A stretch of 59,982 bases of DNA, the filler included, from Dugesia japonica (Eukaryota), in NCBI GenBank assembly GCA_001938525.1. It is 5 parts of 5 records of this genome, joined end to end, with 100 filler letters (N's around TTAATTAATTAA, not from the genome) between each part and the next. Parts side by side here need not be neighbours in the genome. Positions count along the whole stretch, not along the records: positions 36,094 to 47,446 come from MQRL01606118.1; 4 more parts are not named here. One strand, 5' to 3'. The translations under genes and the position numbers were made by a program. The notes under the pieces were generated by a model. It had not been told where the DNA came from. It did no database searches and saw only the letters and a list, made by a program, of their open reading frames with translations. Each line of letters starts with the position of its first letter. The first letter of the stretch is position 1. Shown here piece by piece: positions 24,976-58,560 of the stretch.

Positions 24976-24977
24976 AA

Positions 24978-25077
24978 NNNNNNNNNNNNNNNNNNNNNNN
25001 NNNNNNNNNNNNNNNNNNNNNTTAATTAATTAANNNNNNNNNNNNNNNNNNNNNNNNNNNNNNNNNNNNNNNNNNNN
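24978..25077. other. Artificial scaffold linker
   Basis: N44-TTAATTAATTAA-N44. Confidence 0.97.
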
Positions 25078-30129: not shown

Positions 30130-31912
30130 NNNNNATTGGTAGAAACTTTTCCAGAAACTATTCCAGATTTTTGTTGAGTCATGGGCGTGAAATTTAACTT
30201 TTTGTTTAAATTTACAGATTTTTATGATTTCTTGTTTAAATTAAGTGAAATTATATATTTTTTGGATTTTTTCATGAAAAATCTGTAAAATTACAATATC
30301 TAGTTACAATATCTTTGTTCCTTATCATACTTGAAGAATAAGTAAGTGCTTAGAATATTTAATAAATATGAATTACGTTAATTCGTATTATTCAAACAAC
30401 GGTATTTCAAATTTTCATAACTCTTACTTCTTTCAAAACGTTTTCCATCTTTTCAGCCATTCTATTCTTCTGGTTTTCAAACCATTTGGAAACTTGATTT
30501 CTACTTGATGTTCTGATATAAACCTCACTATCTGGTATAGCTCTTATTATAGCAAACCGTTTTCGCTTTTTTGCTCCGCCTTCTTCAAATTCTATTGCAT
30601 TATCTCTTCTCTGTCTGTCCTTCCTCTTGAGAGCGTTTCATCTTTGGTATAGAGATTTATTTTTCGACCAAATACGATTTCCAAAGGAGAGGATTTTGTT
30701 GAGTCCTGTATTGTAGCATTAACACTAAATTCTATTCTCGGTAATAATGTCCCCGACTCCTTCTCATTACATTTCCTTTTCATTGATATCGTAATCATGT
30801 CCTTCACTGTTTGGATCATCCGTTCTACCAAACAATTTGACTGGTGTTGATACGGAAAACTAAATTCCTGTACAATTCCAAATTTTCCTAGTTTCTTTGC
30901 CATCACTTGAATTTCAAATACTTTACCACTGTCTGTCANAATGGATTTTGGTTTACAAAAACCGTATATTCATTTGTTCAAAATAATCATAAAAATCGTC
31001 TCTTAATTCATTTTTAAAACTGCAAGTAAACTGACTAGTTTGCTAAAATTATCAATAATTAACATCATATATTTCCTTCCAGACTTGCCCTGTTCCATAT
31101 GAGTTATACAACTACAATTTGTTNNNNNNNNNNNNNNNNNNNNNNNNNNNNNNNNNNNNNNNNNNNNNNNNNNNNNNNNNNNNNNNNNNNNNNNNNNNNN
31201 NNNNNNNNNNNNTAATTGTCTCGCACAGCCCTGGCCAGAAATAACCATCTTGTACATATGAAAAGAACTCGTTACTTCCCACATGACATAAATCTTCATG
31301 AATGTCCTTTACCACTTTATCAACTATGTTTGTCGGAACCACTAACAAATTATCCACTATTTTTAATTCGTGCTTTAGTTTATTCCAGTAGCTTCCTTGT
31401 TCACTATTTTTAGTCTCTGAACCTTCTTCTCAAAACAAGCTCTGTATTTTTGAATCTTCTGCCTGAGTCTATCAAATCATTGTTATTATATCGATCTCAT
31501 GTTAAATTCCATTGCTATGTTTCAATCTGGCTTTTTTCTCTTTTTGCGACTGTGTTTCATGCTACATTGTGAACATAAATTCTCCTTTAGCCTCGACAAC
31601 CCATTCGCATTGTTGTGCTCTTCACATTTTCTATACTTGAGTTCAAGATCTTACTCTCCCAAATTCTNAATCCACGTCTGGAATTGTCGACTGATTGGTT
31701 TCTTTATGCTGTTTAGAAATACCAACGCTTTGTCGCATGTTCATACTAGAAATCACTTTCCATACAGATAATGTCCCTTGGCATCTTTTGACTTTCCCGT
31801 TAACTCCACTTAGTAATAAGCTTGGCCATTATCAATCGATGAAAATATTTTATAAAATAAATTATAACGTTCATTCGTATTATTCAAACAACGTTATTTA
31901 GAATTTCCATAA
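30130..31912 (-). mobile_element. Internally deleted Ty3/Gypsy element (RNase H end, integrase, LTR remnants)
   Basis: HEDLCHVG...YFWPGL, IIDNFSK, QSNCLVERMIQT. The direct repeat attcgtattattcaaacaacg...cataac at ~30381-30421 and ~31873-31913 marks the two LTR starts. Confidence 0.85.
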
Positions 31913-35993: not shown

Positions 35994-36093
35994 NNNNNNN
36001 NNNNNNNNNNNNNNNNNNNNNNNNNNNNNNNNNNNNNTTAATTAATTAANNNNNNNNNNNNNNNNNNNNNNNNNNNNNNNNNNNNNNNNNNNN
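35994..36093. other. Artificial scaffold linker
   Basis: N44-TTAATTAATTAA-N44. Confidence 0.97.
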
Positions 36094-36333
36094 AGTATTA
36101 AAGATTGGACAAGTTTTTATCCAATATTCTGTTTTGATTGTTCTGCACAAGATGAAAAACTAACTGTTAATAATGTAGATTTAACATGCCACATGACTAA
36201 AGATTCTGAATTAAGTGGTAATTTGTATTGGTTAATACTATTAGAGAAACATGTTGAATTGAAAATAAGTAATGGTAAAGTAATGTTTGTTGAAAATATT
36301 AAAGGAGAAGATGTTAGAAAAATTAAATTATAA
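36094..36333 (+). CDS. Major capsid protein (double jelly-roll, hexon/PY-like), C-terminal 79 aa
   Basis: Open frame from the scaffold edge: SIKDWTSFYPIFCFDCSAQDEKLTVNNVDL...LYWLILLEKHVELKI. This resembles the YPIFxFDxSxQxE end of Polinton MCPs. Missing from the ORF track because it has no start codon. Confidence 0.75.
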   Translation, partial: SIKDWTSFYPIFCFDCSAQDEKLTVNNVDLTCHMTKDSELSGNLYWLILLEKHVELKISNGKVMFVENIKGEDVRKIKL

Positions 36334-36357
36334 TTAGGTTAAATTATTATTAAAAAA

Positions 36358-36786
36358 ATGGTTGGTGAAAAACAATTGTGTTTAATATGTAATAGATATT
36401 TATCAAAATCATATATAGTAAAACATAATAAACTTTGTGTAGAAAAGCATTCATCTACTGGTGATGAACCTATTCAATCGACTCTAGGATCAGATTTACA
36501 AAATAGTAAAATAACAAATACTTTATTAAAACCTTTTACAACAGAAAAGTATCCTGGTGAAAGACATTTGTTTAATCATAATTATACTGGACCAGGAACT
36601 AGATTGGATATTAGATTGGATGAGAATATGCATCCAAAACCAGGTGAAGAACCTGTAAATAGAGTTGATCAAGCTGCTTTAAAACATGATATTAGTTATA
36701 ATAGTAATGATATTAGAGATAGACATTTGGCTGATGTTAATCTAATACATGATTTAAATAATATAGAAAATCCATCATTGGGTTAA
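36358..36786 (+). CDS. Zinc-finger + parvovirus-VP1u-type phospholipase A2 (N-terminal part of a probable PLA2-integrase fusion)
   Basis: CLIC-x12-HNKLC finger; Ca-binding loop NYTGPG; DQAALKHDISY (catalytic HD); RHLAD. Confidence 0.9.
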   Translation: MVGEKQLCLICNRYLSKSYIVKHNKLCVEKHSSTGDEPIQSTLGSDLQNSKITNTLLKPFTTEKYPGERHLFNHNYTGPGTRLDIRLDENMHPKPGEEPVNRVDQAALKHDISYNSNDIRDRHLADVNLIHDLNNIENPSLG

Positions 36787-36810
36787 AAAGTTCAAAGAGG
36801 ACTAGTTAAA

Positions 36811-37740
36811 ATGGCAATGAAGGGTAAAATAATGTTTGGTGGTGGATTAAAGAAAGAATTAAAGTCTACTGAATTACAGGCTATTGAACTACAGGCTACT
36901 GAATTACATAAACCTTTTAATAAAAATAAAAAGTTTGTCAAAGTTGTATTATACTTTAAAGATGAAACATGGTCAGCTGATTTAATGTTTATAGGACAAT
37001 TAAGAAAACTTGTTCCAGTTTTAATTGTAATTGATTTATATACTAGATTTTTATTTATTGATGTTTTGGAAAATAAAACTGGACAAGAAGTAACAAATGG
37101 ATTTGAAAATATAATTGAAAAAAGTAATCGTATACCAAATAATTTATGGGTTGATCATGGACGAGAATTTTACAACAAAACATTTCAAGAGTTTTGTGAT
37201 GAAAATAATATTAATTTATATTCAACTTCATTAAATACAGAAATGAAAGGTAAAGCAGTTTTTGTTGAACGTGTAATTAGAACATTCAAAAGAAGATTGT
37301 ACAAATTATTTACTAAACAAGGAAATCAAAAGTGGGATGAAGATTTATTAAATTCAATAGTTGATGATTATAATAATACAGTTCATAGTTCGATAAACAA
37401 AACACCAACTGCAGCCAGCAATCATGTTAATGATAAAGTTAGTAAACAAGTTGAAAAGAAAACAGTTAAATGGAATCAAACTAATAAAAATTTCAAAACA
37501 CCAATCAAGAATAAATTAAAGATTGGTGATAGAGTTAGAATATTTAGATTTAAAGACAAGTTTGAAAAAGGTTACACAATAAACTGGACAAAAGAAATTT
37601 ATACAATTTATAAAATCAATAGAGAAAATAATACATCACAACCATTTGATGGAATATTAACTTATAGTATTATAGATAAAGATGGAAATGAAATTTTGGG
37701 TAGGTTTTATAGAAATGAATTACAGTTAACTAGTTTGTAG
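36811..37740 (+). CDS. Retroviral-type (rve) DDE integrase of Polinton type
   Basis: LHKP, WSADL (D), LWVDHGREF (D), VERVIRTFK (E), YNNTVHSSI, KIGDRVRI...KGY..NWT.EIY. No chromodomain. In frame with the upstream PLA2 ORF. Confidence 0.96.
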   Translation: MAMKGKIMFGGGLKKELKSTELQAIELQATELHKPFNKNKKFVKVVLYFKDETWSADLMFIGQLRKLVPVLIVIDLYTRFLFIDVLENKTGQEVTNGFENIIEKSNRIPNNLWVDHGREFYNKTFQEFCDENNINLYSTSLNTEMKGKAVFVERVIRTFKRRLYKLFTKQGNQKWDEDLLNSIVDDYNNTVHSSINKTPTAASNHVNDKVSKQVEKKTVKWNQTNKNFKTPIKNKLKIGDRVRIFRFKDKFEKGYTINWTKEIYTIYKINRENNTSQPFDGILTYSIIDKDGNEILGRFYRNELQLTSL

Positions 37741-37766
37741 CTAATAGCTAATTTACTTTTAATAAA

Positions 37767-38549
37767 ATGGCTCAAGTAAATCCAATTTGGAAAAGTAGTA
37801 CAAGTAAATTTAAACATGAAATATTTCCACCACAATTTAGATGTTTAATTATTGGTTCAAGTGGATGTGGTAAAAATGTTTTACTATTAAAGATTTTACT
37901 AACACCAAATTTTATTGATTATAATAATTTGATTATATTTTCAACTACTATTAATCAAACTGAAATCCAATTACTTTACCATGGATTTAGTCAAGGTTTA
38001 AGTAAACAAGATTTAGTAAATTTATTTTCAGATGAAATGCAAGATAAAATTCCTAAAGATTTAAATCCGCAAGAAATAATCTTTTGGTATTCGAGTGAAG
38101 TATTATCAAGAAGTACTGATGAGTTAAAAGAAGATTTAGATAGTTGGATAAACATTACACTATCAACTAAAGCATCTGAAATTGTTCCATGTGATAAATT
38201 ACCTAGTAATAAAAAGAATTTAATTATTTTTGATGATGTAGTAAATGAAAAAAATCAATCAATACAGAAATCTTACTTTACTAGAGGAAGACATAACAAT
38301 TGTAATGTAATTTATATATCACAAACATATTATGATCTAGATAAAAATAGTATAAGGAATAATAGTAATTGTTTTATTTTCTTTAAATTAGGCAAAAGAG
38401 ATAAAGATAATGTTTATCATGATTTATTCAGTAATATTTTTAATAGTAAAGAAGAATATGATTTTGAAACCAATCACCATTGGAAAACAAAGTATAATTA
38501 TTTTTATCTTGATAAAGAAAAAGAAATGTTAGTTGACTCACTATTCTAG
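37767..38549 (+). CDS. A32/FtsK-like DNA packaging ATPase
   Basis: Walker A GSSGCGKN (atypical N), Walker B LIIFDD, RGRH arginine finger, YISQ motif, IRNN. Confidence 0.93.
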   Translation: MAQVNPIWKSSTSKFKHEIFPPQFRCLIIGSSGCGKNVLLLKILLTPNFIDYNNLIIFSTTINQTEIQLLYHGFSQGLSKQDLVNLFSDEMQDKIPKDLNPQEIIFWYSSEVLSRSTDELKEDLDSWINITLSTKASEIVPCDKLPSNKKNLIIFDDVVNEKNQSIQKSYFTRGRHNNCNVIYISQTYYDLDKNSIRNNSNCFIFFKLGKRDKDNVYHDLFSNIFNSKEEYDFETNHHWKTKYNYFYLDKEKEMLVDSLF

Positions 38550-38576
38550 TTCATAAGCTAAATTATTATATAAAAA

Positions 38577-39206
38577 ATGGCAAGTAACACAACTGAACAA
38601 GAATTATTAGACTTGATAAATAGTAACAAAAGTAAATCAATTAAAATTGATGGTAAAAATTATTGGATAGGTAAAAGAAGTAAAGAATTAATAAAAAAGA
38701 GTATACATGATAATAAACTAGAAGTAGAAGGTGGACTATTTCCATTATTAGGATTAATACCAGCAATTTTGGCAGGAATTGGAGCAGCTGCACCTACAAT
38801 CGCAGGAGTAACTGCAGCTGTTGCAGGAACTGCAGGCGCTGCTGCAGGAATTGCGAAAGTTGTTTCAAATTCCCGTGAAGCTAATAACAAACTTAAAGAA
38901 CCTAAATTGTTGGATCAACGATTGATGGAAAATAAAGTTGATAATAAAGTTGATAATAAAGCTATTGAAAATAAACCTATTGAAAATAAAGTTGAAAATA
39001 CATTACCCCAGTCTGTAGGAACTGGAATATATTTAAATCCCTATCAAGGATCAGCTATCCACAAATATCTAAAACCTTATTTAATTAATAATGTTAATGG
39101 TTCTAAAGTAATAAAGAAAAAGAAATTTAAAAAAGGAATTGAAATTATTCCAAGTGGTAAAGGATTATATTTAAATCCATATTCGTATGAAAGTGAATAC
39201 AAATAA
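38577..39206 (+). CDS. Adenovirus pX-like core/membrane-active virion protein
   Basis: VEGG-LFPLLGLIPAILAGIGAA resembles adenovirus pX GG-ILPLLIPLIAAAIGA; Gly/Ala-rich hydrophobic helix; two GxG(I/L)YLNPY motifs. Confidence 0.7.
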   Translation: MASNTTEQELLDLINSNKSKSIKIDGKNYWIGKRSKELIKKSIHDNKLEVEGGLFPLLGLIPAILAGIGAAAPTIAGVTAAVAGTAGAAAGIAKVVSNSREANNKLKEPKLLDQRLMENKVDNKVDNKAIENKPIENKVENTLPQSVGTGIYLNPYQGSAIHKYLKPYLINNVNGSKVIKKKKFKKGIEIIPSGKGLYLNPYSYESEYK

Positions 39207-39218
39207 AACTTAATTAAA

Positions 39219-40130
39219 ATGAGTGATTGGATTGAAAGTAGAATAAAGTGTTTAAAAGAACAAATTATTGGAATTGAAAAATATGACAAGTTTATAGTTG
39301 ATCAAGTTTCATTTGGTAATAACTTTGGAATTAACAACTTTCCAACTAGTTTGGTTAATAACTTAAGTGAACAACCTATTAAAGATCAAGTTAAAGACCA
39401 AGTTAATGAACAACCTATTAAAGTTCAACCATTAACAAAATCTATAGGTTCTACAGAAGATTCAAAAAATGAAGAAAAAAATGAACTTATTAAAAATCTA
39501 ATTAATAAAACAATCAAGGATGGTAGATTAAAATTGAATAAAAAAGATTTTATAGTTAGTAAAAAGTATGATTTACCTCCAACTTTAACTCCTCACCTTA
39601 TTTTAAATGATGAAGATTCTTTTGATTCTTTTCAAATTGGTTCATATATTATTTGTATAAGAGAAAGAATTAAAAATGTTAATTCTGAAAAATATTTTTC
39701 ATTTGATAACCAATCTGGATATATTAAAGAAACATTATTTAATCAAGAATTATTAAATTTAATGTTTGGCTATGGATCTAATGATGATGAAGCTAAATCA
39801 ATTTATTTAAAATTATTTAATAACTCCAATTTAAATTCAAGTAATTATATTAGAACATGTGGAAGAAAAGGAAATTTTGATGAAGTGTTTAAGAAATTTA
39901 AAAAAGTACCTGAATATAAAGAAATTGATACTGTAAAAATTAGTGGTGAAGGATTTAAAATAACTAATAATCCAATTAAATTATTAGAAAAGTTTGTTAT
40001 AATAACTAGTGCAATGAAAGCTGGTCATGATGGAATGACGACAGAGTTTAACAAAACAGTTGATCAAATGTTGGATAGAAAATTAATAACTGAAGCAAAA
40101 TATAATAGACTTAAAGAAAAGTATAATTAA
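39219..40130 (+). CDS. Conserved Polinton protein of unknown function
   Basis: Intact 303-aa ORF. C-terminal NPIKLLEKFVIITSAMKAGHDGMTTEF resembles the PxxLxxRLxLLxASxxAGN helix motif I recognise from Polinton proteins. Confidence 0.65.
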   Translation: MSDWIESRIKCLKEQIIGIEKYDKFIVDQVSFGNNFGINNFPTSLVNNLSEQPIKDQVKDQVNEQPIKVQPLTKSIGSTEDSKNEEKNELIKNLINKTIKDGRLKLNKKDFIVSKKYDLPPTLTPHLILNDEDSFDSFQIGSYIICIRERIKNVNSEKYFSFDNQSGYIKETLFNQELLNLMFGYGSNDDEAKSIYLKLFNNSNLNSSNYIRTCGRKGNFDEVFKKFKKVPEYKEIDTVKISGEGFKITNNPIKLLEKFVIITSAMKAGHDGMTTEFNKTVDQMLDRKLITEAKYNRLKEKYN

Positions 40131-40832
40131 ATGTCACATCAATTTTTAATATATGGTCAAGAACATGAATTAGAAACTAAATTATCAAATGGTTTAAATT
40201 TAAAAGGTAATTGGGAAATTGCTTTAATTTGGTTCACTACTTCTAATATGATTTTAAATATAAATAATAAAAATAATAAATATAAAATTAATAATGTTGT
40301 AAAAGAATTAACGCCAGGCGCTTATGAAATTAAACAAATTGCCGAGCGTTTGGCTATTGATTATATACAATTAACATTTGATGTTTCAACAGGCAAAGCC
40401 TTTATTCAAGTTAGTGAAAAATTTTCTGATAAAGGTGAATTAAAACTTGAATTTGATTCAACTTCTTTTTTTCATACCATATTAGGATATAATACTTTTA
40501 GTGGTTATAGTTATTTACTTGTAAAAGATAAGATTTTCATTTCAGAAAATAAAATAAACATTATTGACATTAATACAATTAATATTATTTGTAATATTGT
40601 TCAAGGTAATTATTTGAATAATAAAGAATCTAATTTGTTACATAGTTTACCAATGGGAACAGTTCCTTATGGATATCGTATAACAGACAGACCAGCTAAT
40701 CCAATTTACTCTCAAATTAATACAGATTTTATATCTAGAATTAAATTAAATATAGTAGATGAAAATTTTAATACAATAGATTTTGATGGTGAAAAAATAA
40801 ACATTTTAATTCACTTGAGGAAAGTGGTTTGA
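40131..40832 (+). CDS. Minor capsid protein (penton, single jelly-roll; PX)
   Basis: L..NWEIAL, PGAYEI, INIICNIV, VPYGYRI..P..PIY, I.L.IVDEN...IDF.GE....IHLR. Confidence 0.88.
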   Translation: MSHQFLIYGQEHELETKLSNGLNLKGNWEIALIWFTTSNMILNINNKNNKYKINNVVKELTPGAYEIKQIAERLAIDYIQLTFDVSTGKAFIQVSEKFSDKGELKLEFDSTSFFHTILGYNTFSGYSYLLVKDKIFISENKINIIDINTINIICNIVQGNYLNNKESNLLHSLPMGTVPYGYRITDRPANPIYSQINTDFISRIKLNIVDENFNTIDFDGEKINILIHLRKVV

Positions 40833-40853
40833 TCAACTAAAGTTGGTTAATAA

Positions 40854-41447
40854 ATGACTACTAACACAAATTACAACATAACAGACTTTTTAAAAACATT
40901 TGGTATTACATCAACTACTAATTTTGATTTGATGGATCATGTTAAATTTTTACAATTCAAATGCCCAGTTTATATTTTAATGAAAAATGAAATGGAAGAT
41001 TATGCAAACGCAAATGCAAACGCGAATGCGAACGCAAACGCGAATGCAGATGCTAACACAGATCCAATTAATTGTTTTATAATAAATTATCAAAATACAA
41101 ATCAAAAAGGTAGTCATTGGGTTGCTTATGTTCAATGTTGTATACCAACTACGAATGCAAACGTGAATGCAGCTTGTAAATTACATGGTTTTTATTTTGA
41201 TTCTTATGGACTAACTCCATTGGATTGTATTAAAAAGATTTCAAATTATTCCTTAAAATGGAATACAACTAGAGTTCAACCTTGGAATACTAAAATATGT
41301 GGTATTTTATGTTTATACTTTATTTATAAAATACAACTAGTATTAGTTGATAGACTGTCTTTTAATTCACCTGGAATAGCAAACTATAAAATGAAATTTG
41401 ATTTAATAATTAAAGAATTAAAAACTACTTTCAAAGATTGGTTATAA
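40854..41447 (+). CDS. Adenain-like cysteine protease (virion maturation)
   Basis: IIN...GSHWVA (His), YFDSYG (Asp), VQ...ICGILC (Gln/Cys); contains an (Asn-Ala)n insertion. Confidence 0.93.
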   Translation: MTTNTNYNITDFLKTFGITSTTNFDLMDHVKFLQFKCPVYILMKNEMEDYANANANANANANANADANTDPINCFIINYQNTNQKGSHWVAYVQCCIPTTNANVNAACKLHGFYFDSYGLTPLDCIKKISNYSLKWNTTRVQPWNTKICGILCLYFIYKIQLVLVDRLSFNSPGIANYKMKFDLIIKELKTTFKDWL

Positions 41448-41467
41448 CAAAGTTATAGCTTTAATAA

Positions 41468-42637
41468 ATGACTCATAGTTTTTCAAATGTTATAATGAAT
41501 AGGTTTGGTGAAACATTGGACAATAAAAATACTAGCCAATTACTTGAAGCATTTGATGGTAAAGTTGAAAGTAAAATTAATTTAAAATTAAAAATACATG
41601 AACATCAAGAAGAAATTAAAAATAAAAAATATGATGATAGAGAATATGTTGATAAAGTAGTAGATAAAAAAGTTGAACAATTGACTGTAAAGTTTAATAG
41701 TCAACTAACTAAACAACAAGTTACTATTGATACTTTATTAGAATCCAACAAAATACAATTGAGTGATAGGAAAAAGGAATTCATTAATCTAAAAAGTGAA
41801 ATGTTAATTCAAATTGAAAACTTTAAACAAATTAAAAACTTTTATAAAGATGAATTTGATACCAAGATAAATAAATTAAATAAACAAGTTGATAGTTTAA
41901 AAGTTGAAGTTGATAAATTAACAAGTAAATGTAGTGAAGTTAAATGTAAAGAGCTAAAAGAAAAAGTAGATAAATTAAAATATGATTTTGATTATTTAAA
42001 ACAAACTAAAAATGATGTATTAAAAGATTTGGGATTTAAATTATCTCAACTTCCATGTATGTATCATGAAGATTATATTGATATTCTGAAGATTAAAGAA
42101 AATTTAATAAAAGAAAGAGAAGAAAAGAAAATTTATTCCCAAGATTTAATTAATGAATTAAGAAATAAAATTGAAAATTATTTTCCATTTAAATTAGATG
42201 AAAATACAAAAACAAACAAGAATATATTATTTAAATTAACAACAGATAAAATTATAAATGACTTACCAACTGTTGTAGTTTATAGATTAAAAAAATTTCA
42301 AGCTAATAAAAATAATACACCTTTAGTGTGGAATTATATTATTAATTCTGCTTACTTGTTAAATAATACTTTGGATTTAACTTTTAATTTACTTTCAAAA
42401 GAAAAAAAATTATTTTTCCATTTCACTTTCGGTAAATCATTTTATAAAGTTGAAATATATATAGAATCTATGTTTGGCTATGTTTATAAATTTTTAATAC
42501 CACTAAATAATTTAAATGAAAAAGGATATATTGTAGATACTGATAGTTTACTGCGTGATAAATGGGATTATGTAAAAATAACCATTACTGGAAAATGTTA
42601 TTTTAAATCTTTAACTATATCAACTCAAATTAAATAA
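41468..42637 (+). CDS. Coiled-coil protein with beta-rich C-terminus (candidate fibre/spike)
   Basis: Intact 389-aa ORF; heptad-rich K/E/L region over about aa 30-235, then an aromatic, beta-strand-like domain. Function is inferred only. Confidence 0.6.
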   Translation: MTHSFSNVIMNRFGETLDNKNTSQLLEAFDGKVESKINLKLKIHEHQEEIKNKKYDDREYVDKVVDKKVEQLTVKFNSQLTKQQVTIDTLLESNKIQLSDRKKEFINLKSEMLIQIENFKQIKNFYKDEFDTKINKLNKQVDSLKVEVDKLTSKCSEVKCKELKEKVDKLKYDFDYLKQTKNDVLKDLGFKLSQLPCMYHEDYIDILKIKENLIKEREEKKIYSQDLINELRNKIENYFPFKLDENTKTNKNILFKLTTDKIINDLPTVVVYRLKKFQANKNNTPLVWNYIINSAYLLNNTLDLTFNLLSKEKKLFFHFTFGKSFYKVEIYIESMFGYVYKFLIPLNNLNEKGYIVDTDSLLRDKWDYVKITITGKCYFKSLTISTQIK

Positions 42638-42644
42638 TTTAAAA

Positions 42645-43307
42645 ATGGAAGCTGTTAAATTATATCCAGATTTAGATTTAAATAATGATTTAAATAAACC
42701 AAAACCAAATTCATTGGAAGAATTAAAAAATAAATTAAATCAAACAAGAATTAAAGATTTTGAAAATGATCTAGAGTGGATAGAAGATAAACTAAAACAT
42801 TATAAAAAATTAAAAAGAAGATGGTCAACATTTGATAATGGAGTTAGATTTACTGATGTTGGTATTTCAACATTTGTAGGCATTGCTTCAGGAACTGTAA
42901 TAATAATGTCAACTTTATCATTTACAATACCTTTAATTGCAACTGCTATAATAACTGGAATACCAATTATTTATTCAATTGCCCATGGTTCATTGCGAGT
43001 TGGTTTAATTAAAAAGAGAATAACCAAATACAATAATAAAATTAAATTATTAGAAGAAACTAAAAATAAATTGTTTCTCTTTCAAACCAAAGCATTAGAA
43101 GATGATGAATTAAGTAATGAAGAAATTAAAATTAGTAAAGATATAATTACTAAACTTAAAACACAATTAGTTGGTCAACAAGTTGAAGCCGATAGTTCAA
43201 AGCAAATATCTGATCAACAATTGTCTGATCAATTGGGTCAACTATCAAAAACATTTCCAATAATGATGGAGCAAATTGCTAACCAACTCAAAAAGAAAAA
43301 TTTATAA
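42645..43307 (+). CDS. GasderminX-like membrane protein of adintoviruses
   Basis: Basic helix, then a double hydrophobic segment (VGISTFVGIASGTVIIMSTLSFTIPLIATAIITGIPII), then a coiled coil ending KALEDDELSNEE. Confidence 0.7.
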   Translation: MEAVKLYPDLDLNNDLNKPKPNSLEELKNKLNQTRIKDFENDLEWIEDKLKHYKKLKRRWSTFDNGVRFTDVGISTFVGIASGTVIIMSTLSFTIPLIATAIITGIPIIYSIAHGSLRVGLIKKRITKYNNKIKLLEETKNKLFLFQTKALEDDELSNEEIKISKDIITKLKTQLVGQQVEADSSKQISDQQLSDQLGQLSKTFPIMMEQIANQLKKKNL

Positions 43308-43383
43308 AAAAATGATCAAGTAAAAAAAATTGTGGTTTAATACCCCAACCCGTCAAGCCAAAGATTTATTATAATAAAAGAAC

Positions 43384-46300
43384 ATGTCAACTGAAAATGA
43401 TGACCTTAATATTATTATTGAAAGAGCAATTTTAGAAAATAGATATTGTGATATTTGTAATCAATGTTTTAGAACAAACTATCATTTAAAGACTCATCTA
43501 GAAGGTAAATACCACAAAAGAAAAGTTGAATTATCAAATATAGGTGATTATTGGAGAACATGTCACAGATGTAATTTACAATTTAATAATTTAATAAACT
43601 ATAATAGACATATAAATGGACGTAGACATCTTTCCAACGTCCATTTTAATAGAAATATTGAACAAGAGAAAAATCTTAAAGAATTATACAAGGATTATAT
43701 TCAACCTGAAGGTTATTATAAAGTAGAAACATGTCATCAATCAATGATTAAATTAAAACAAGACTTTATAGTTTGTAAAAATGATAAACAACCTGCTATT
43801 GAAAACATTCATCAATTTGAAGATAGAATTAATTTTAATCTTTTAAAAGAATATTCAAATGAAATGAAGAACTTGGTTGATATATTTTTCAGCAAATATC
43901 ATAAAGTTGCAGTTTCAATAACTTGTTCTACAACATATACAAAAGATTTTGTTGGAGAAGATAGTATCACTAATCAACAATGGATAAAGGATTATGATGC
44001 ACATTCACAGAAAATTACAATGTTTAGTCAAATTTCTGAAATGATTGATAAAATGTTGGATCAACTTTCAGAAGATATTTTCACAACAGAGACTCAAGGA
44101 TCAGGTTGGTCATTTGATAGATTTAATTCTTTTACAATTGAACTCTCTAATTATGAATCTCTTGTTGGCCAAGGATATGTTCCATTGCCTATAGAATGGA
44201 AAAATATTCCTGGAATTTTAAATATCAAGAATCCAGAATATGATTTAAATTGTTTTAAATATTGTATAATGTCACATCTTGATCCTTTATTAAATGATTT
44301 AGTTGCCAGTTATCAAAATCTTAAAACTATTAAAACAATTGGTTTAAATTGGACTGATATTAAAATGCCAATGTCTATAAAAGATATTCCTAAATTTGAA
44401 AGATTAAATGATTTTCAAGTTAATGTCTTTGAAGTAATTCCAAGTAAAACTAGTCCTAAAATTCAAAAACTATATTCTTCACACTTGGAAACTAATCCAC
44501 TTTCTACTGTTAGAAAATGTAATTTACTTTTACATGAAAAACATTACATTTTAATTAGAAATTTAAACAAAATAAATACAAAATCTAAACATGTAAATGA
44601 ATTGTGTATTAACTGCATGAACTGGAAACGTGATAAAGAATCATTAACGAATCATCAACTACTTTGTTTAAAACAGAAAGATGCACAAATTAAATTTACT
44701 TTTGCAGATAAATACAAATTTTCTAAATACTACATGAAAAATAAAAATCCATTTGTAATTTATTTTGATATTGAAACTTATAAACAAGGAGATAATTATT
44801 CTAGTGATTATTCAAATGAATTAATTCCATTCGCTTTAGGATTGTATTTAGTTAGTAATCATCCTAAAGTTAATAATATTTACAAATCATTCCAAGGACC
44901 TAATTGTATTTCTAAATTCATTGATTGGTTATTAAAATTTAATCATTTATTTGAACAATTAATTAACAAATCTTTTAAATCTTATTGTTTAGATGATGAT
45001 GATCTTGTAGAGTTAGAATCCAGTAAATGTTATTATTGTGCATCAAATGCACTAATGTGCGATGCACTTTCGATAAATCCTTGGACAGGATCTTCTAGAG
45101 GCTATGCACATAGTGAATGTATTAAAGTTTATGAAGATCCAAAGAAGTTTTTCATCCCAGTATATGCACATAATTCTAGTAAATTTGATAATCATTTTAT
45201 ATTTAAAGAAATATGTAAACTTCATTCAAGTAAAATTAGTAATTTAATTCCATTGAATGATGATGTTTACATTTCATTTTCTTTAGAAAGAATGAGATTT
45301 TTAGATTCTTTAAGAATGTGCAGTGGTCATTCGATTGAAAAGATGGGTCAGGATTTATTAAAAAGTAAAAATCATCCACATCTTGATAGTTTTAATCTAA
45401 AACCATGTAAAGGAATCTATCCATATGATTATGTAAGTGGTAATAATTATAAAGAAGTGAAACTAAAGTTAATAAACTACTATCCACTTATTGATGATTT
45501 TTACAATGTTTTGAAACAATCTGAACTATCTGAATCTGATTTTCAAACATTTCAAAATGATTATTCAAAATTTGATAATTTATTAGATTATACAATGCAT
45601 TACATGAAGCTTGATGTAATAATTCTAGCAGACTTTTTCGAAAACTTTAGGTCTTTATCACTAGATAGGAATGAAATTGATCCAACATATTGTTATTCTG
45701 CACCAGGTTTAACTTGGGAAATTGGAATGAAAGTATCAAAAGTTAAATTAATGAATGCCAATAACTTTAACTTTGACATGTTTCTAACTATAGAACAAGG
45801 AATTCGAGGTGGTTTTTCAGGAGTATGTGGTAATAGACATGTTGTAGCAGATGAAAATCATACACTAAAATGTTTAGATGAGAACAGTTTATATGCTGCA
45901 TCAATGACAAAACGATTACCTTGGGGTGAAATGAGTTGGGATAATGACAAAACTTATGTTAGAACTAATGATAATTTTACAATTAATGAACTTGGTGAAA
46001 AGATTTATATGGATTATATTTATACAGTTGATTTAATTTATCCTGATGAAATAAAAGAAAGGACTAAATATTATCCATTAGCAGTAGAAAAACAATCTAT
46101 TGAGTATAAAGAGCTGAGTGACTATCAAAAACATTTATTAAAAATTATGAATCAAAATCAATCCAATAATGAAAAGTTGATAATGACTCAGAAAAATAAA
46201 TATAATTATATAGTTATGGGCCAAGTTTTGGATTTGTATTTAGATCAGGGATTGATTTTAACAAAAGTTCATAGTAAAATTAATATTCCAACAAAATATT

Positions 46301-47130
46301 GGTTAAAAGATTATATACAATCTAATATTAATTCTAGAGATGAAGCTAAAGTTAATAATGATGATTTCGGAAACTCATTTTTCAAACTATTAAACAATGC
46401 ATTTTTTGGCAAAACTTTGGAAAATGTTAGAAATCGTATCAATTTATTTCTAGCTACAACTAAAAAGGAATTATTAAATCAAGTTTCTAAACCTGGTTAC
46501 AAATCTTCAATAATAATTAATGAACAAGTTGCTTTGATAAAATCATTCAAGAAACAAATAATGTACAACAAGTTTCAATATATTGGATTCTTTGTTCTAG
46601 ATTATGCTAAACTAATCATGTACGATTTTGTTTATAATCAATTAAATGTAAGAATTCCCAACTCAATCAACAATGAACAATGGAAAATACACTACTCTGA
46701 TACAGATTCTTTATTTATTGAATTTATACATCCAAACATGAATTGGAAAGAATTAGATAATAAAACACAAATTTCAAATCTATTTGGCAATAACTTGTTT
46801 CAAATGAAGGATGAATATCCTAATGAAATAATTAAGGAAGCATTCTTTATAAAAGCCAAATCATATTATCTAGTAAAAGAAAAGAAAGATTTAAAGAAAC
46901 ACAAAGGAATAAGTAATACAAACAAGTTTACAGCGAATCAATATAAAAATGTATTGTATAAAAATATAAGAATAGCTGGAACAAACTATACAATTAATTC
47001 TAAATTACATCAAGTTGTACAATCTCATCAAAACAAACAAGCTTTAACAGCATTTGATGACAAAAGATTTATTCTAGATGATGGAATAACTACATTACCA
47101 TTTGGATATTTAGTAAATAATCAACAATAA
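43384..47130 (+). CDS. polB: Protein-primed family B DNA polymerase with two N-terminal C2H2 fingers
   Basis: GSGW, CFKYC, ExoI YFDIET, ExoII HNSSKFD, KGIYPYDY, ExoIII YMKLDV, IRGG, motif A DENSLY, motif B KLLNNAFFGK, motif C YSDTDS, KGI, DDKR...TLPFG; 1248 aa uninterrupted. Confidence 0.98.
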   Translation: MSTENDDLNIIIERAILENRYCDICNQCFRTNYHLKTHLEGKYHKRKVELSNIGDYWRTCHRCNLQFNNLINYNRHINGRRHLSNVHFNRNIEQEKNLKELYKDYIQPEGYYKVETCHQSMIKLKQDFIVCKNDKQPAIENIHQFEDRINFNLLKEYSNEMKNLVDIFFSKYHKVAVSITCSTTYTKDFVGEDSITNQQWIKDYDAHSQKITMFSQISEMIDKMLDQLSEDIFTTETQGSGWSFDRFNSFTIELSNYESLVGQGYVPLPIEWKNIPGILNIKNPEYDLNCFKYCIMSHLDPLLNDLVASYQNLKTIKTIGLNWTDIKMPMSIKDIPKFERLNDFQVNVFEVIPSKTSPKIQKLYSSHLETNPLSTVRKCNLLLHEKHYILIRNLNKINTKSKHVNELCINCMNWKRDKESLTNHQLLCLKQKDAQIKFTFADKYKFSKYYMKNKNPFVIYFDIETYKQGDNYSSDYSNELIPFALGLYLVSNHPKVNNIYKSFQGPNCISKFIDWLLKFNHLFEQLINKSFKSYCLDDDDLVELESSKCYYCASNALMCDALSINPWTGSSRGYAHSECIKVYEDPKKFFIPVYAHNSSKFDNHFIFKEICKLHSSKISNLIPLNDDVYISFSLERMRFLDSLRMCSGHSIEKMGQDLLKSKNHPHLDSFNLKPCKGIYPYDYVSGNNYKEVKLKLINYYPLIDDFYNVLKQSELSESDFQTFQNDYSKFDNLLDYTMHYMKLDVIILADFFENFRSLSLDRNEIDPTYCYSAPGLTWEIGMKVSKVKLMNANNFNFDMFLTIEQGIRGGFSGVCGNRHVVADENHTLKCLDENSLYAASMTKRLPWGEMSWDNDKTYVRTNDNFTINELGEKIYMDYIYTVDLIYPDEIKERTKYYPLAVEKQSIEYKELSDYQKHLLKIMNQNQSNNEKLIMTQKNKYNYIVMGQVLDLYLDQGLILTKVHSKINIPTKYWLKDYIQSNINSRDEAKVNNDDFGNSFFKLLNNAFFGKTLENVRNRINLFLATTKKELLNQVSKPGYKSSIIINEQVALIKSFKKQIMYNKFQYIGFFVLDYAKLIMYDFVYNQLNVRIPNSINNEQWKIHYSDTDSLFIEFIHPNMNWKELDNKTQISNLFGNNLFQMKDEYPNEIIKEAFFIKAKSYYLVKEKKDLKKHKGISNTNKFTANQYKNVLYKNIRIAGTNYTINSKLHQVVQSHQNKQALTAFDDKRFILDDGITTLPFGYLVNNQQ

Positions 47131-47215
47131 TCAATAGTCAATAGCCAATAGTCAATCAACAATAGCCAATCAACAATAATCAATAAATAATAAACAATAA
47201 TAAATAGTCAATAAA
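47118..47215. repeat. Low-complexity (CAATAGY/CAAT)n tract with AATAAA signals after polB
   Basis: caatagtcaatagccaatagtcaatcaacaatagccaat...aataaa. Confidence 0.7.
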
Positions 47216-47446
47216 CTAGCATTTCCAAACTACAAACACTTTTGAACAACAAAAAACATTAATCATACTCCAGAAAACAGTTTATAAACTGCTGTTTTTA
47301 ACTACAGATTACAGTAAATAAACACTGAAAACAGATGATAAACTACATTTTTATTTTAATATTTTTAGTAAAAAACCACGCATTTACAGACTATTTGCTA
47401 CAGTCTACAGTTAAATAACGCCAGAAAAGCGCCTTTTTTACTTCAT

Positions 47447-47546
47447 NNNNNNNNNNNNNNNNNNNNNNNNNNNNNNNNNNNNNNNNNNNNTTAATTAATT
47501 AANNNNNNNNNNNNNNNNNNNNNNNNNNNNNNNNNNNNNNNNNNNN
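47447..47546. other. Artificial scaffold linker
   Basis: N44-TTAATTAATTAA-N44. Confidence 0.97.
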
Positions 47547-52337: not shown

Positions 52338-55300
52338 TCGCTCCTATTTAATCTTTTTGAACATCTGTTTCTAGCCATTCGATCCTTCATCGCTTAGGGA
52401 TTCCAGAATAATTTAAAAGCATCTGATGTGGGCTTAGAAATTTTATTATTTCAAAAGGACCTTCATATCTGTATCCATTTTTCTTCAAGTTGTGAGGTTC
52501 TACCTTTACTAGAACTTCTTCCCCTTCAACAAAATTCNNNNNNACTCTTTTATCTGATTCATATTCATTTAATTTCAGAGCCACATTTTTCCAATTTTTA
52601 GCAACTAATTCTCTAACTTCTCCACTACTTGTATTGTCATTTACTAATTGTCCATGAATCATAATTTTTCTTCCATAAATTATTTCAAACGGTGATACTG
52701 TAGTTGCATTTTGTTGGGTTGCATATATTGAAAATTGAATTCGAGGTAATAGCTTATCCCAACTAACTTCTTCACATCCACTTCTTATTGTAGTGACAAT
52801 CATATCACGTAGAGTCCTGATCGTTCTTTCTGCCAATCCGTTTGATTAATGTTGGTATGGAGACGCAAATTCTTGGGTAATTCCAAATTTCTGAGTCATT
52901 CCTTTCATCAATTTTCCTTCNAATATCTTGCCTCTATCGGTCAGTATGGATTTGGGCTTGCCTTGGTTCATCAAAAATAAGCTATATCAATGACAATATG
53001 TTCTAATGCTCCAAATTCGGTTCGAGGTAATAAAAATTCTTTTGTTTGGTCTGTATGTGTTTTCCTTTATTTGAAAATTAAGCATTTCTTAACATATGTT
53101 CAATTGTTCTAAACATATCAGGCCAAAAAAAAGTTCTTTGATTATATTCAGTTAATTTTCTCGTTCCCAATTGACATAATTCTTCATGAATGTAATTTAT
53201 TAAATCAACTACTGATTTACCTGCTAAAACAATCCTCTTCGAATTTTTATCAAGAAACAGCAATATATCTTTTTCCATAACGAATTTATCAATATCTCTG
53301 AAGTATTTACTTTTATTTAACTTTTTATTAACTTGGAAGCTTTGATCTTTAATATATGCAATTATCTCTTTGATAATTCGATCATTACTTTGAATTTTTA
53401 TGATACTTTCTTTATCATAACTTGAGCTTCCTACAATATTAATTCTTCTAACTCTAGATTTTTCACCTTTTGCATCGTGATGAGTCGTCAAACATTGGGC
53501 ATATAAACTTTATCCTATTCTTGATAATCTATCAGCATTACCATGATCAATTCTTTTGCAAAGTTGAAGATCAAAATCAAATTCTGCTAGATTTGTAATC
53601 CACGTCTGGAACTGTGAACTAATTGGTTTACTTATTTTTTTCATAAACACTAATGCCTTATGATCAGTTCGGGCGATGAACATTTTTCTGTAAAGATCAT
53701 GCTTGAAATGAATCATAAATTCGTGTAGTGCCAATAATCCTTTTCTGGTTACACAATAACCCTTTTCATGATTATTCAAATTGCGAGATGCATAAGCAAT
53801 AACAATTTCTACACTATCTCTCGACAATTGACTCAAAACAATACCAATTGCATTGAAACTCTAATATTATTTTACTTTGAGGATTTGGAAATACCAAGAT
53901 TGGTAAATTACATAATTTTTCTTTTAGTAGTTTAAAACTGCTGTCACATTCATCAGTCTACTCTACGACTTCTTTTGATCCAGTTATTGCAGTAATTGTT
54001 GCGTAATCTTTAATAAATCTACGATAATAATTTGTCAATGCCAAGAAAGTTTGACTTTGGGTTGCACATTTTGGAATAACAGTTTCTTTTACTTTATTAA
54101 TAATGTCATCATTTGTTTCAACACCTTTAGAACAGATTTTATGACCAAAAAACATTAGTTTTGATACACTAAATATACAATTTTCAGGATTAATTTTTAG
54201 TTTAGATTGTTCAATTAATTCCAACACATTTTCTAAAAAATGTCATCAAGATAAATGAGCATTCCAGTAAATAACATCTTGTTGAAAAGTTTTTATGCAT
54301 TAATACTTGAAATGTTGCAGGAGCGGTGCGTAATCCAAACATCATGAGATTGAAACAAAATTTTTCCATTTTTGTGCTGAAAGGTGTTTTTAATTTTGAC
54401 TTCTCAGTTAATTCAATTTGATAATATGCCTGCACTAGATCAATTGATGAGAAAAACATAGAGCCATTTAATGTATCCAATAACATATTTATATCTGGAA
54501 CAGAAAATGAATATTTTTCAGTTACCGAATTCAATTTCCTAAAAATCAAAGCACATTTTTAGAGAACCATCTTTTTTTGGAACAATCACTAATGAAGAAT
54601 TCCATGGACTTCGACAAGGTTTTATAACATTTACTGATAATAGATTTTGTATTAAGTCTTCTATCTTGTCTTCTAAGTGCATTGGTTGTCTTCTTGGATT
54701 TATCAATACGGGTTCTCCTTTAGTTTCTATGTTATGCATTGTCATATTTGTTAACCTTACATCAAATTTTGAATTCATAAATATGTTATCATCTATTAAT
54801 TATTCTATTGCTGGCATTTAGTTTGAGTGCATTCATTTTTTTATTATCAAGTTTGTTATTTTTGCATATAACATCTTTTGAATCTATGAAATTGATCTAT
54901 TTTATTCTCATTTTAAACGCTTCCATTATGTCTATCCCACAAATAAAATTTTGACAAATGTCTTTAACAATAATTATTTTTTTTCAATATGCTTTTTAAT
55001 CCAAAATAATTTAATTCTAGCGTTTCCTATGCTTATTTTACTTTTCTCAGAAAATAAGGATTCTTCCCTTTCTTGTTCTTCTATACATAATATTCTTTGA
55101 TTATTGTGCCTTCTTTGTAATAATGCACAATTTCTGACAGCCCGGCCTTCTTTACCGCATATTAAACACCTATTTTTTAAAGTACAGTTTATTCTTCTAT
55201 GGTTTGCTTCTCCACAGCCAAAACAAGCACCATGCTGTAGAAATTCTACTCTTGGAGGAGCTTTACCATCACATATAAACTTGTGTTGCTACATATTTCA

Positions 55301-56113
55301 GAATGTTTTGAAAATTCTCTTCTTTGTTCTTCATTTATATCTTTTAATTGTTGCATATTATTACCTATCGTTGAATCGTTTGTCGGTTTTCTAGAAATTG
55401 TAGAATATTTTGGAGTATTTTCTTTTTTATGAAAATATTGTCTTCTGTAATCATTTCCCATTTTATTAAATTTTGGTTCAAAAGCTGATTTCTTAACTGC
55501 ACTTGCATAGCTTTCGTTGACAACATATACATTACTTTTCGCTACAAATTTATCAAGGTTTGCAGCCAATTCTTGACGTTTTTCGTCATTTAATTCTGGT
55601 TGGAGTGCACAGGAATCTTTAAGTTTCTCGCTTCTTAAACCATTCAGAATAAAAACTCTTGATATTTCCTTGTTGATCTTTTGCTTTCAAATATGTCGTG
55701 AACAAGTTTGTTTACTCTTATTTCGAAATTCCGATATTTTTCATCAATTCTTTGTTTAACTGATGATAGATCTGTAATTTTGTCAACCAGAGATTTATCA
55801 TTAATAAATGTTGATCGAAACCAACTTTCGCACTTTTCATTTGAGTTGAAATCCTCGTTTGTGTTAGTTTCTTGACACAATTCCTTGGCATCGTCTCGTA
55901 ATAGCATATCAAATGCAAAAGAAATCCCTATTTGATTAAATATGGCAAATTACTTAGTGGTTTGCATCCAATCTTCTGAAGTATCTGAAGAACTATAAAA
56001 AATGTAGGCTTCGGAATCAGTATTTCTTGCGTAGCTTGTGGAAGATTTTTAAAAATCTTTTGTCGCTCTTCTTTCCGCTGCCTAGTAATGGCACTAACTT
56101 CTAAATAATCGCA

Positions 56114-56436: not shown

Positions 56437-57189
56437 TAACAAAAAATTTTAAAATCAGCACAGTTATTCTCGAAATTATTATAAGTTAAACATTGTTAAT
56501 AAACTCAATATTAACAACACTGTCCATAATATCAATTTAGATAATGTCAATACCATCAACACTGAAAGATGTGGATGTAATTGGTGAATTGTATATGTGT
56601 GTGTGTGTGATATCTGAATACATAATTATGAGTGCTGTATAGCACATGTATCCCTCTTATAACGCGATTTAAAAATTGTGTAAATTCTTGGATACCGCAG
56701 TTTTATGAATTATGAAATTATGAATTAATCAAGTTTGCTAGTAATTTATTGTAATTAATAAAAATTAATGAAATGTATATGTAAATCAATAGATTTCATG
56801 AAATGACATGTAAATTGTGCAGATTATGATAATTTTATTTATTAAGATGTAGTTTAAAGGAATTTATTGGACAAATTTAATGTTCATTGAATATTTTAAT
56901 TATTTAAAATATTNNNNNNNNNNNNNNNNNNNNNNNNNNNNNNNNNNNNNNNNNNNNNNNNNNNNNNNNNNNNNNNNNNNNNNNNNNNNNNNNNNNNNNN
57001 NNNNNNNNNNNNNNNNNNNNNNNNNNNNNNNNNGAATATGCTTTTTCATGATAAAATAAATAAAAATAACCAAAGAGAGGAGTCTTTGTAATATTTTTAT
57101 GTTAAAATATATGAAAAAAGTTCAAAGAGTAGAATCTTTGTGATATTTGCATGATACAATATCAAATACAAAGTTTTCTTTACAAAATA

Positions 57190-57560
57190 ATAAAAACAGA
57201 ACTTTTTTCATAATAAAAAAAACATTAACTACGTAATTTTGTCTAATAAAAAAAACATTAGTCATGTAATGTTTCTATAAAAAACATTACTAGTGATAAT
57301 TGTCTATAAAAATAAATCTCATTACCGATGTAATTTTAAATAAAAAATCTCATTAGTATTGCAAATTTAATAAAAAGTATCATTAGTGTTGCAATTTTTA
57401 ATAACAAATCTCATAACCAATGCAATTTTTCATTACAAACATGTTGACAATGAAACTTTCCAAAATAAAACATATTGGTGATGCAATTTTCTTATAAAAC
57501 ATATTAGTCATGCAGTTTGTCTATTAAAAACACATATTACTAGTGACAATATTTTTACAA
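57190..57560. repeat. Degenerate ~30-bp tandem repeat (aaacattag.gatgcaatttt)
   Basis: Repeated cattag/catta...tgcaatttt units. Confidence 0.75.
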
Positions 57561-57569
57561 GAGTTTTAT

Positions 57570-58560
57570 ATTTGTATAGCATTCTTGTAATATGTACATA
57601 GCAGCCATGAAATATACGGTTTATGAGTTTATTATTTACATAGCAACTATCTACTATAAGAGTTATGAGTGTGTTATTACATAGAAACCATGTATTATAG
57701 GGTCTATGAGTATATTATTTGCATAGTTACCTTGTATAATTTACGCAACAACAATTATAAGTGTATTAATACATAGTACCCTAGTATTTTAGGTTTTATG
57801 TGTATATTATTTACATTATAACCGTATAATATAAGGTTTATGAGTGTTATGTTTACATAGCAATCTTGTATTATTTACATAGCAACCATGAAATATATGG
57901 TTTCTGAAATAATACCCTCATAAACCATATATTTATGTTATATAATACACGGTTACTATGTAAACTTTATAATATGTAAATAATATTAAACCCTATATTA
58001 TATGGTTGCTAACTCAATAAAATATGGTTACTATGATTTGGTATCTTAATTATATAAATAAACCCTATAATACTTTCTTAAACCATATATTACATGGTTG
58101 ATATGTAAATAATACAAACATAAACCTTAAAATACACTCATAATGCCTATAATATACGCTTACTAAGTAATTAATAAAGAATCACACAAGTAATAAACTC
58201 ATAAACCCTATATTACATGGTTGCTATTTCAATTAAACATGGTAACTATGATTTGTTATCTTAATTATAAAAATAAACCCTATAATACAAATAATACCCT
58301 CATAAACCATATATTTCCTGGCTGTTATGTAAATAATACAAACATAAACCTAATAATACGCGGTTACTATATAAACCTTATGATTATGGTTACTATGTAG
58401 ATATTACACTTATAAAGCCTATAATACATGGTTATTATGTAAATAATACAAACATCAACCTTATAATACACGGTTACTATATAAACGATATAATATATGG
58501 TTACTATAATACAGCATTATTATGTAAATAATACACTCATTAACCATATATAGTCATAAC
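57570..58560. repeat. ~42-bp satellite that switches orientation near 57908
   Basis: catagcaaccatg...ggtttatgagtgtattattta units up to ~57905, then their reverse complement (catggttgctatgtaaataatacactcataaacc) to ~58550. Confidence 0.8.

Follow-up and report, generated by a model that had tools for sequence, protein, structure and literature searches.

A probable recently inserted, largely silent copy of a very large Polinton (Maverick) family in Dugesia japonica

The subject of this report is a gene-dense element on one scaffold (MQRL01606118.1) of the Dugesia japonica assembly GCA_001938525.1. It lies at positions 36094-47446 of the window, that is, the whole stretch of 59,982 nt that was analysed. 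In our reading, to which we give a probability of roughly 0.78, the element belongs to a very large endogenous Polinton (Maverick) family of the alpha-adintovirus type, of which it is one recently inserted and largely silent copy. The part in view is real but incomplete and represents the inner 11.35 kb of a single Polinton copy.

The characteristic gene set of Polintons includes protein-primed DNA polymerase B (pPolB), an rve integrase, a packaging ATPase, a cysteine protease, a double-jelly-roll (DJR) capsid protein, and a PX-type penton (PMC4028283; the papers cited here by PMC number or DOI were available in part, and statements drawn from them are limited to those parts). When the element was examined for the gene content of Polintons/Mavericks, pPolB, an rve integrase, an A32/FtsK-like ATPase, and an adenain-like protease were all found, and catalytic motifs are present in these four proteins as well as in a phospholipase A2 (PLA2). 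A Polinton/adintovirus-like identity of the element is supported. An earlier description made from the DNA alone (hereafter the sequence-only reading) had already named this identity and called the same four genes; the hallmark genes and the DJR capsid tail agree with the former, and Pfam matches, homology, and catalytic motifs with the latter. The features of the element, in window coordinates, are listed below (ORF, open reading frame).

35994-36093, no strand: artificial scaffold linker at the left limit of the element (N44-TTAATTAATTAA-N44, four times in the window)
36094-36333, plus strand: C-terminal 79 codons of a DJR major capsid protein gene, cut by the scaffold edge (assigned by homology)
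36344-43386, plus strand: start-linked TAAA(A) motif, no more than 14 nt from each of ten starts (10 of 10, against a fraction of 0.16 at other ATGs)
36358-36786, plus strand: N-terminal Cys/His zinc-binding-like segment and parvovirus-type PLA2 (PF08398, E = 6e-9)
36787-37740, plus strand: rve integrase in the PLA2 frame (PF00665, E = 1e-10; open from 36787, first ATG at 36811)
37767-38549, plus strand: A32/FtsK-like packaging ATPase (PF04665, E = 2e-9; Walker A, Walker B, and arginine motif present)
38577-39206, plus strand: ORF4, candidate pX-like amphipathic core protein (weak phmmer matches)
39219-40130, plus strand: ORF5, 303 aa, C-terminus weakly like ORFs that adjoin the capsid gene in relatives (E = 0.05-0.2)
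40131-40832, plus strand: ORF6, probable penton (PX-type minor capsid protein, by homology)
40854-41447, plus strand: adenain-like C5 cysteine protease (PF00770, E = 0.023, under the cut-off; His88, Gln142, and Cys149 present)
41468-42637, plus strand: ORF8, 389 aa, orphan with a coiled-coil-like middle (sub-threshold zipper matches only)
42645-43307, plus strand: ORF9, 220 aa, predicted membrane protein (common to three related contigs, E = 3e-6 to 3e-4)
43384-47130, plus strand: pPolB, 1248 aa (PF03175, E = 4e-23)
47131-47446, plus strand: non-coding 3' stretch of 316 nt (7-bp tandem repeat at 47125-47216, five AATAAA)
47447-47546, no strand: artificial scaffold linker at the right limit of the element (N44-TTAATTAATTAA-N44)

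The window consists of five unrelated scaffolds joined by one repeated linker, N44-TTAATTAATTAA-N44, at 14658-14757, 24978-25077, 35994-36093, and 47447-47546, and neighbourhood across these linkers carries no meaning. The element scaffold (11,353 nt, GC 24.6%, zero N) holds ten complete plus-strand ORFs and the 5'-truncated 79-codon frame at 36094-36333. Spacers between ORFs measure 0-27 nt, with the sole exception of 76 nt ahead of pPolB, and the coding share is 95%. There are no frameshifts and only one in-frame stop, at 36784-36786. The eleven tightly packed frames described earlier are confirmed, but not the label near-intact: both limits are artificial linkers and the ends are out of view. 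Stop-free frames of at least 100 aa cover 0.93 of this scaffold and 0.11-0.27 of the other four, as the claimed contrast with the rest of the window would have it, but the contrast partly reflects assembly quality, because each of the other scaffolds contains 180-576 N and this one none.

No terminal repeat was found within the element scaffold by self-BLAST. The only long inverted repeat at its ends, which is 100% identical, is the linker pair and was rejected as a terminal repeat. A read contig matches 330 nt at the 3' stretch with one difference and then has other upstream sequence attached; its depth is 7.2, compared to 3.3-4.4 for exact pieces elsewhere in the element. The 316-nt stretch may conceivably be the inner part of a terminal repeat. 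An Rfam scan of the window gave zero matches. All visible genes lie on one strand, an arrangement shared by one of the 13 related loci (here numbered with L) that have at least five labelled core genes; in L016 and L018 only one or two genes are reversed. The strictly unidirectional order proposed earlier is thus true of the visible part, and uncommon, but the unseen left part may differ.

The major capsid gene is represented by its last 79 codons. The encoded tail matches the C-termini of proteins of 413-460 aa (24 matches in an index-free protein search, best E = 1e-15), all nine scanned relatives match the Pfam DJR-like family PF21738, and a profile built without the tail matches it at positions 350-416 of 418 (E = 1e-24). 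A jelly-roll check by modelling had been suggested, and a full-length relative, P0122, indeed models as a DJR capsid (pLDDT 76.5) that matches those of PBCV-1, mavirus, and Sputnik. A BFVD search with the model of the relative returned only distant capsids (7-16% identity), and a word-index protein search with the tail returned 0 of 88 candidates. Through these relatives the tail is assigned, by homology, to the DJR family. It amounts to 17-19% of the length of its relatives, which leaves 81-83% of the gene beyond the scaffold edge, and no further capsid piece was found in the window. Because only these 79 codons are present, the full virion module of the sequence-only reading is unproven.

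ORF6 has homologues with E values down to 1e-17 in 10 of the 30 related loci, and a profile from which ORF6 was excluded matches it over its full length (E = 6e-32), so that a family conserved in related elements stands behind the penton call. The fold gives no support: the single-sequence prediction has a pLDDT of 31, and PDB sequence searches with ORF6 and with alignments A3 (penton) and A2 yielded nothing under E = 0.05. ORF6 has no Pfam match, a word-index protein search gave 0 of 1,062 candidates, and its nearest ESM Atlas clusters are from arthropods and Preplasmiviricota, without names. ORF6 is therefore termed a probable penton on the basis of family homology and PMC4028283, and not of fold.

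Read data suggest the link between this scaffold and the genome of the host. Eight sequencing runs that contain part of the element all derive from one organism and span four studies from 2014 to 2025, with no RNA run listed among them. Four of the 24 listed runs were compared with the element, namely two DNA runs and two oligo-dT RNA runs for which tissue and condition are not given. The DNA runs hold 9,705 and 10,170 related contig records, which cover all 30 bins at 88-100% identity; 883 and 914 of them (about 9%) reach at least 99% identity, and 5,055 and 5,308 (about half) fall at 90-95%. Difference-free pieces of 147-328 nt are present in both DNA runs at a depth of 3.3-4.4, and diverged pieces at a depth of 13-83. 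Because exact pieces recur at low depth, the scaffold represents an individual minority variant rather than a majority consensus. Summed depth reaches tens of thousands, a figure that is no copy number, as the single-copy depth of the runs is not established. A check of copy number and divergence had been proposed, and it can be answered for the abundance and divergence of relatives but not for a count of copies. Related contigs reach by far their highest summed depth over the PLA2 core (36473-36851) and the ATPase (37989-38746), and their lowest over the end of ORF8 and the start of pPolB; conservation or partial elements could account for this unevenness.

The age of the copy and the age of the family have to be distinguished. 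If the in-frame stop is a lesion, one stop in 3,597 codons corresponds to a neutral divergence of 0.18% (95% range 0.005-1.0%). The best reading is that this copy was inserted recently, at a neutral divergence of about 0.2% and at most 1%, with integration deduced from the reads. Forty listed of 317 family differences, picked by the tool and scored singly even where neighbouring changes share a codon, comprise 18 synonymous changes, 21 nonsynonymous changes, and one stop. Synonymous changes number 18 against 6.2 expected, a count reached in none of 5,000 simulations, and 25 of the 40 are at third positions. This synonymous excess indicates that the family diversified under purifying selection. 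A decayed pPolB fragment of Polinton type (25-34% identity to the pPolB of the element, E = 2e-17, two frames) lies on the minus strand of another scaffold, at 3148-4294, and therefore older insertions exist. The family is large, old, and diverse rather than a young lineage; the youth proposed by the sequence-only reading belongs to the copy. Likewise, the endogenous state is not visible in the window, where no flank is seen, and comes from the read data.

Expression of the element was close to nil in the two RNA runs, for each of which the search covered a quarter of the run. In X10, 55 reads among 13.6 million records were related to the element, 54 of them aligned only partly and two at 99% identity or more; in X13 there were 23 reads among 11.6 million records, 23 partly aligned and none at that identity. 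Some 19 of the X10 reads derive from a diverged PLA2 copy; most of them have the orientation that would be sense in usual stranded libraries. The copy is best read as largely silent in these two runs, and the suggestion that it is possibly still active finds no support in them.

Two other explanations of the scaffold have to be weighed against an inserted, silent copy. It could be a free genome, episomal or packaged in particles, a contaminant, or a collapsed mosaic of many copies. Such an origin would account for the missing host flank, the scaffold free of N, the low CpG content, and the fact that no listed read contig spans the whole stretch. However, exact pieces recur in runs made a decade apart (2015 and 2025) by different studies of one organism, each time at a comparably low depth, they sit amid thousands of diverged relatives, and the scaffold differs at many sites from nearly all of the family depth, which a consensus would not; we regard this explanation as very improbable. 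A currently active, particle-forming virus lineage, the strong form of the earlier proposal, would fit the intact enzymes, the recent insertion, the purifying selection on the family, and the X10 reads from the diverged PLA2 copy. With next to no RNA reads in X10 and X13, few near-identical siblings, and a capsid gene mostly beyond the scaffold edge, it is improbable as well. Several observations nevertheless weigh against one recently inserted copy of an endogenous family. As the scaffold stops at linkers on both sides, it shows neither a host junction nor a terminal repeat or target-site duplication. The element is compositionally foreign, with a CpG observed-to-expected ratio of 0.30 compared to 0.76-0.96 in the neighbouring scaffolds. 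The limits on summed depth, on the 40 differences, and on the penton call, given above, also count here. CpG is depleted beyond codon use, with 17 occurrences across codon junctions versus 44 plus or minus 5 in synonymous shuffles; among relatives the ratio is 0.13 in L016 and 0.08 in L003, and 1.5-1.7 in L014, L027, and L029.

An unusual feature of the element is the arrangement of PLA2 and integrase. With codon 143 read as X, 36358-37737 forms a single frame of 460 codons that encodes the zinc-binding-like segment, PLA2 (with both GPG and HDxxY motifs), and the integrase (with the DDE residues D57, D115, and E153). A 15-bp tandem repeat lies inside the integrase gene at 36856-36908. The integrase has no C-terminal chromodomain: it ends where the chromodomain-like tail of relatives starts, 26 nt before the ATPase, and a Chromo match is found in the integrases of L031 and L032 and not in that of the element. 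Three distinct related contigs, L031, L032, and L052, have PLA2 directly before integrase on one strand, with a frame change where the two genes meet. In L032 and L052 this change coincides with or lies close to seven consecutive A, and in L031 it falls within a conserved N-terminal integrase motif. No ATG precedes the first catalytic Asp in the integrase frame of L031 or L052, and in all three contigs the first ATG of that frame lacks the start motif. PLA2 and integrase are apart or on opposite strands in L013, L014, L019, L027, L029, L035, L046, and L054. Offsets at the junction vary from one relative to another, for which reason a single ribosomal frameshift common to them was rejected.

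Since PLA2 shares one frame with a chromodomain-less integrase, we lean towards a PLA2-integrase polyprotein as the form in which the integrase is produced and would travel in the particle. Two results speak against it. No intact fusion ORF was found in any locus; all four coupled cases are interrupted, each in its own way. The integrase ATG of the element, moreover, carries the start motif and follows a 24-nt spacer, as other genes do, and this would suit a genuine split of the gene. Adenain-type cleavage motifs are present just ahead of the integrase and within ORF4; as ORF5 and pPolB contain them too, they were not counted as evidence. A PLA2-integrase fusion is not described in the available parts of PMC3671162, PMC5803895, 10.1101/2024.03.25.586562, and PMC8502044, whose supplementary genome maps may show one; 10.1101/2024.03.25.586562 mentions that frameshifted products of penton and of hexon-adenain may exist. 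Neighbouring genes are fused in other ways in related loci, so that gene fusion is not rare in this class. PLA2X is fused with a protease at L019:10220-11251, a weakly protease-like segment with integrase at L026:2740-4248, and a 463-aa ORF at L024:6207-7595 joins a PLA2 domain to an ADP-ribosyltransferase-like domain.

Instead of a lesion, the stop could be a fixed feature of the lineage, either dividing PLA2 and integrase into separate genes or setting the amount of integrase through low-rate read-through, and the visible part would then be free of lesions. The start motif and typical spacer at ATG 36811 suit this, as does the fact that all four coupled elements are interrupted no more than about 150 nt from the junction and have their other genes open, and no difference at 36784-36786 appears among the 40 listed. 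Yet some 20 codons of the conserved PLA2 domain follow the stop and are thereby lost; six of six aligned relatives read through this position, and the spacer can still be recognised as the same conserved sequence. The motif ahead of the integrase ATG can, moreover, arise from the codons themselves, and only 40 of 317 difference rows bear on the site. We consider a fixed stop possible but on balance doubtful.

The second unusual feature is the TAAA(A) motif, which is found first ahead of 36358 and last ahead of 43384, takes the exact form TAAATG at three starts, and extends to A[AT]TAAA at eight of ten. The pattern was drawn from the starts of the element itself, and the related loci therefore serve as the independent test. 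It is enriched at P < 1e-6 in four of 26 loci (10 of 12 starts in L005, 13 of 13 in L016, 9 of 13 in L018, and 8 of 12 in L024) and at P < 0.01 in eight of 26; it is absent from L014, L027, and L029, whose GC is alike. That the motif is nothing more than the poly(A) signal of the preceding gene was rejected, since in relatives it is also found between divergent genes and following 400-nt spacers. L031, L032, L033, and L052 have, in addition, an A-rich block 20-26 nt ahead of the ATG, which is not clear in the element. The motif resembles poxvirus intermediate and late promoters: vaccinia has TAAA ahead of the start in its intermediate promoters, with an AT-rich block located 15-19 nt upstream, and TAAATG in its late ones (PMC11980589). 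In yeast linear plasmids, TAAAN initiators cause slippage (PMC6211774). No paper on such promoters in animal Polintons was found by title or opening of the abstract. Each gene of the element probably has its own short TA-rich promoter or initiator at the start codon that is read by host RNA polymerase II.

A different polymerase would be involved if the element were a helper-dependent, virophage-like element, transcribed in the cytoplasm when a poxvirus- or asfarvirus-like virus co-infects the cell and supplies an RNA polymerase that recognises TAAA(A), and otherwise silent. Slippage of that polymerase on A-runs could then join the PLA2 and integrase frames in relatives. The presence of the motif at all ten starts and in independent loci, its likeness to vaccinia promoters and plasmid initiators, and the near-zero RNA are in line with this idea. 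Maverick-clade elements also occur with entomopoxviruses (PMC11296320); those Polinton-like viruses share Maverick-clade capsids, a protease, and a PLA2-like gene with the element, and together with protist virophages they are a precedent, in animals, for relying on a large DNA virus. For the element no helper is known, and the main text of PMC11296320, which does not contain the words "motif" or "transcription", offers no promoter comparison. However, an A-rich start context with a TATA-like box would serve host polymerase II equally (the comparison had no host-gene control), the background ATGs are mostly in coding DNA, where AT content is lower than in spacers, and the element shows no clear upstream A-block. 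Slippage is countered by frame offsets that differ among the three relatives and by a stop in L031 that rules out nearby A-runs. Helper dependence is thus rather unlikely. It is more improbable still that a branch of animal Polintons consists of endogenous virophages of poxvirus- or asfarvirus-like viruses, with TAAA(A) promoters of intermediate/late type in front of every gene, an in-particle PLA2-integrase polyprotein regulated in amount by recoding, and hundreds or more silent genomic copies that respond to infection.

Comparison with known systems places the element in a distant branch of its class. Like Polintons/Mavericks (Polintoviricetes, Amphintovirales, Eupolintoviridae), it has pPolB, integrase, ATPase, protease, DJR tail, and probable penton; it differs in being seen over only 11.35 kb, in its single-strand gene order, and in a pPolB whose nearest proteins are only 35-37% identical. 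Alphadintovirus (PMC8502044) shares a pfam03175-type PolB with candidate OTU residues and PLA2-like and pX-like genes. In the element, however, the place of a single PLA2X gene is taken by two, PLA2 (36358-36786) and the X-like ORF4 (38577-39206), the integrase lacks the chromodomain described as distinctive in 10.1101/2024.03.25.586562, a zinc-binding-like segment precedes PLA2, PLA2 is in the integrase frame, and PolB has two C2H2 fingers. Because both the chromodomain and the single PLA2X gene are missing, it was not filed under Alphadintovirus. Also comparable are the environmental Polintons L005/L032, L016/L033, L018/L031 (IMG/VR), and L052, which have a zinc-ribbon-PLA2 without X and the start-linked TAAA(A); PLA2 adjoins integrase in three of these four, and three have an ORF9-like gene. 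PLA2 scores 70-84 bits against them versus 46-51 against L014, L027, L029, and L046, and the ATPase 108-126 versus 77-80. Unlike in the element, their PLA2 faces away from the ATPase and three of their integrases keep a chromodomain-like tail. L052 is a Polinton contig filed in a bacterial metagenome-assembled genome, where it was probably mis-binned.

The nearest relatives of the element's proteins are P0002-P0004, P0122, P0125, and P0137. In a pPolB tree (47 sequences, 772 columns, FastTree, midpoint root, with no Alpha or Beta reference included), the element groups with P0002-P0004 (support 1.0), and deeper nodes are weak. The pPolB does not group with the L005, L016, L018, L052 set, unlike the best scores of PLA2 and ATPase, which hints at module exchange that the tree cannot prove.

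The pPolB has two N-terminal C2H2 fingers and intact exonuclease and polymerase motifs, and Cys290/His387 are candidate vOTU residues, a tentative assignment that draws in part on 10.1101/2024.03.18.585575. Matches to the ATPase occur in 20 and to the protease in 13 of 30 related loci. ORF4, with a hydrophobic stretch at residues 48-93, gives weak phmmer matches (E = 0.002-0.03) to the C-terminal parts of PLA2X proteins and an E of 0.12 to a syntenic ORF whose own Pfam match is Adeno_PX (E = 0.007). It is likely, on this weak similarity, the pX-like protein that is fused to PLA2 in other adintoviruses (PLA2X) and separate here. ORF5 has no Pfam or PHROG family. ORF8 has no homologue in the related loci and an ESM Atlas best of 0.79 that gave no lead; a fibre-like role is a guess. 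The hydrophobic stretch of ORF9 spans residues 72-115. PHROGs matched none of eight element proteins, an exact look-up in the protein collection found none of ten, and scans of viral contigs with the ATPase alone and with ORF6 alone found no contig. Elsewhere in the window, a 432-codon minus-strand open frame with leucine-rich repeats at 12768-14063 (LRR_6, E = 1.5e-11) is probably a host gene exon. Fragmented Gypsy-type long terminal repeat retrotransposons with reverse transcriptase, RNase H, and integrase matches lie at 19272-27449, 30595-30969, and 52543-55949, and dense AT-rich tandem and inverted repeats with periods of 29-52 bp at 57043-58550.

The functions of the element can be predicted from its gene families. 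pPolB would copy a linear genome by protein priming and the rve integrase would insert it into host chromosomes. Capsid, penton, and ATPase would build and fill an icosahedral particle that the protease would mature, and PLA2 with the pX-like protein would breach membranes on entry. In this copy, the stop in the PLA2-integrase frame would remove the conserved end of PLA2.

The element is one more endogenous Polinton, a common class, but it belongs to a distant branch with a very large family. Its TAAA(A) motif and PLA2-integrase frame make the transcription of animal Polintons and their possible need for a helper virus a testable question, and many public RNA runs exist for the host. The start motif predicts where transcripts would start and whether they would bear non-templated 5' A-leaders. 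The PLA2-integrase frame predicts that integrase would be present in the particle and that, without a chromodomain, its choice of insertion sites would be unlike that of its relatives.

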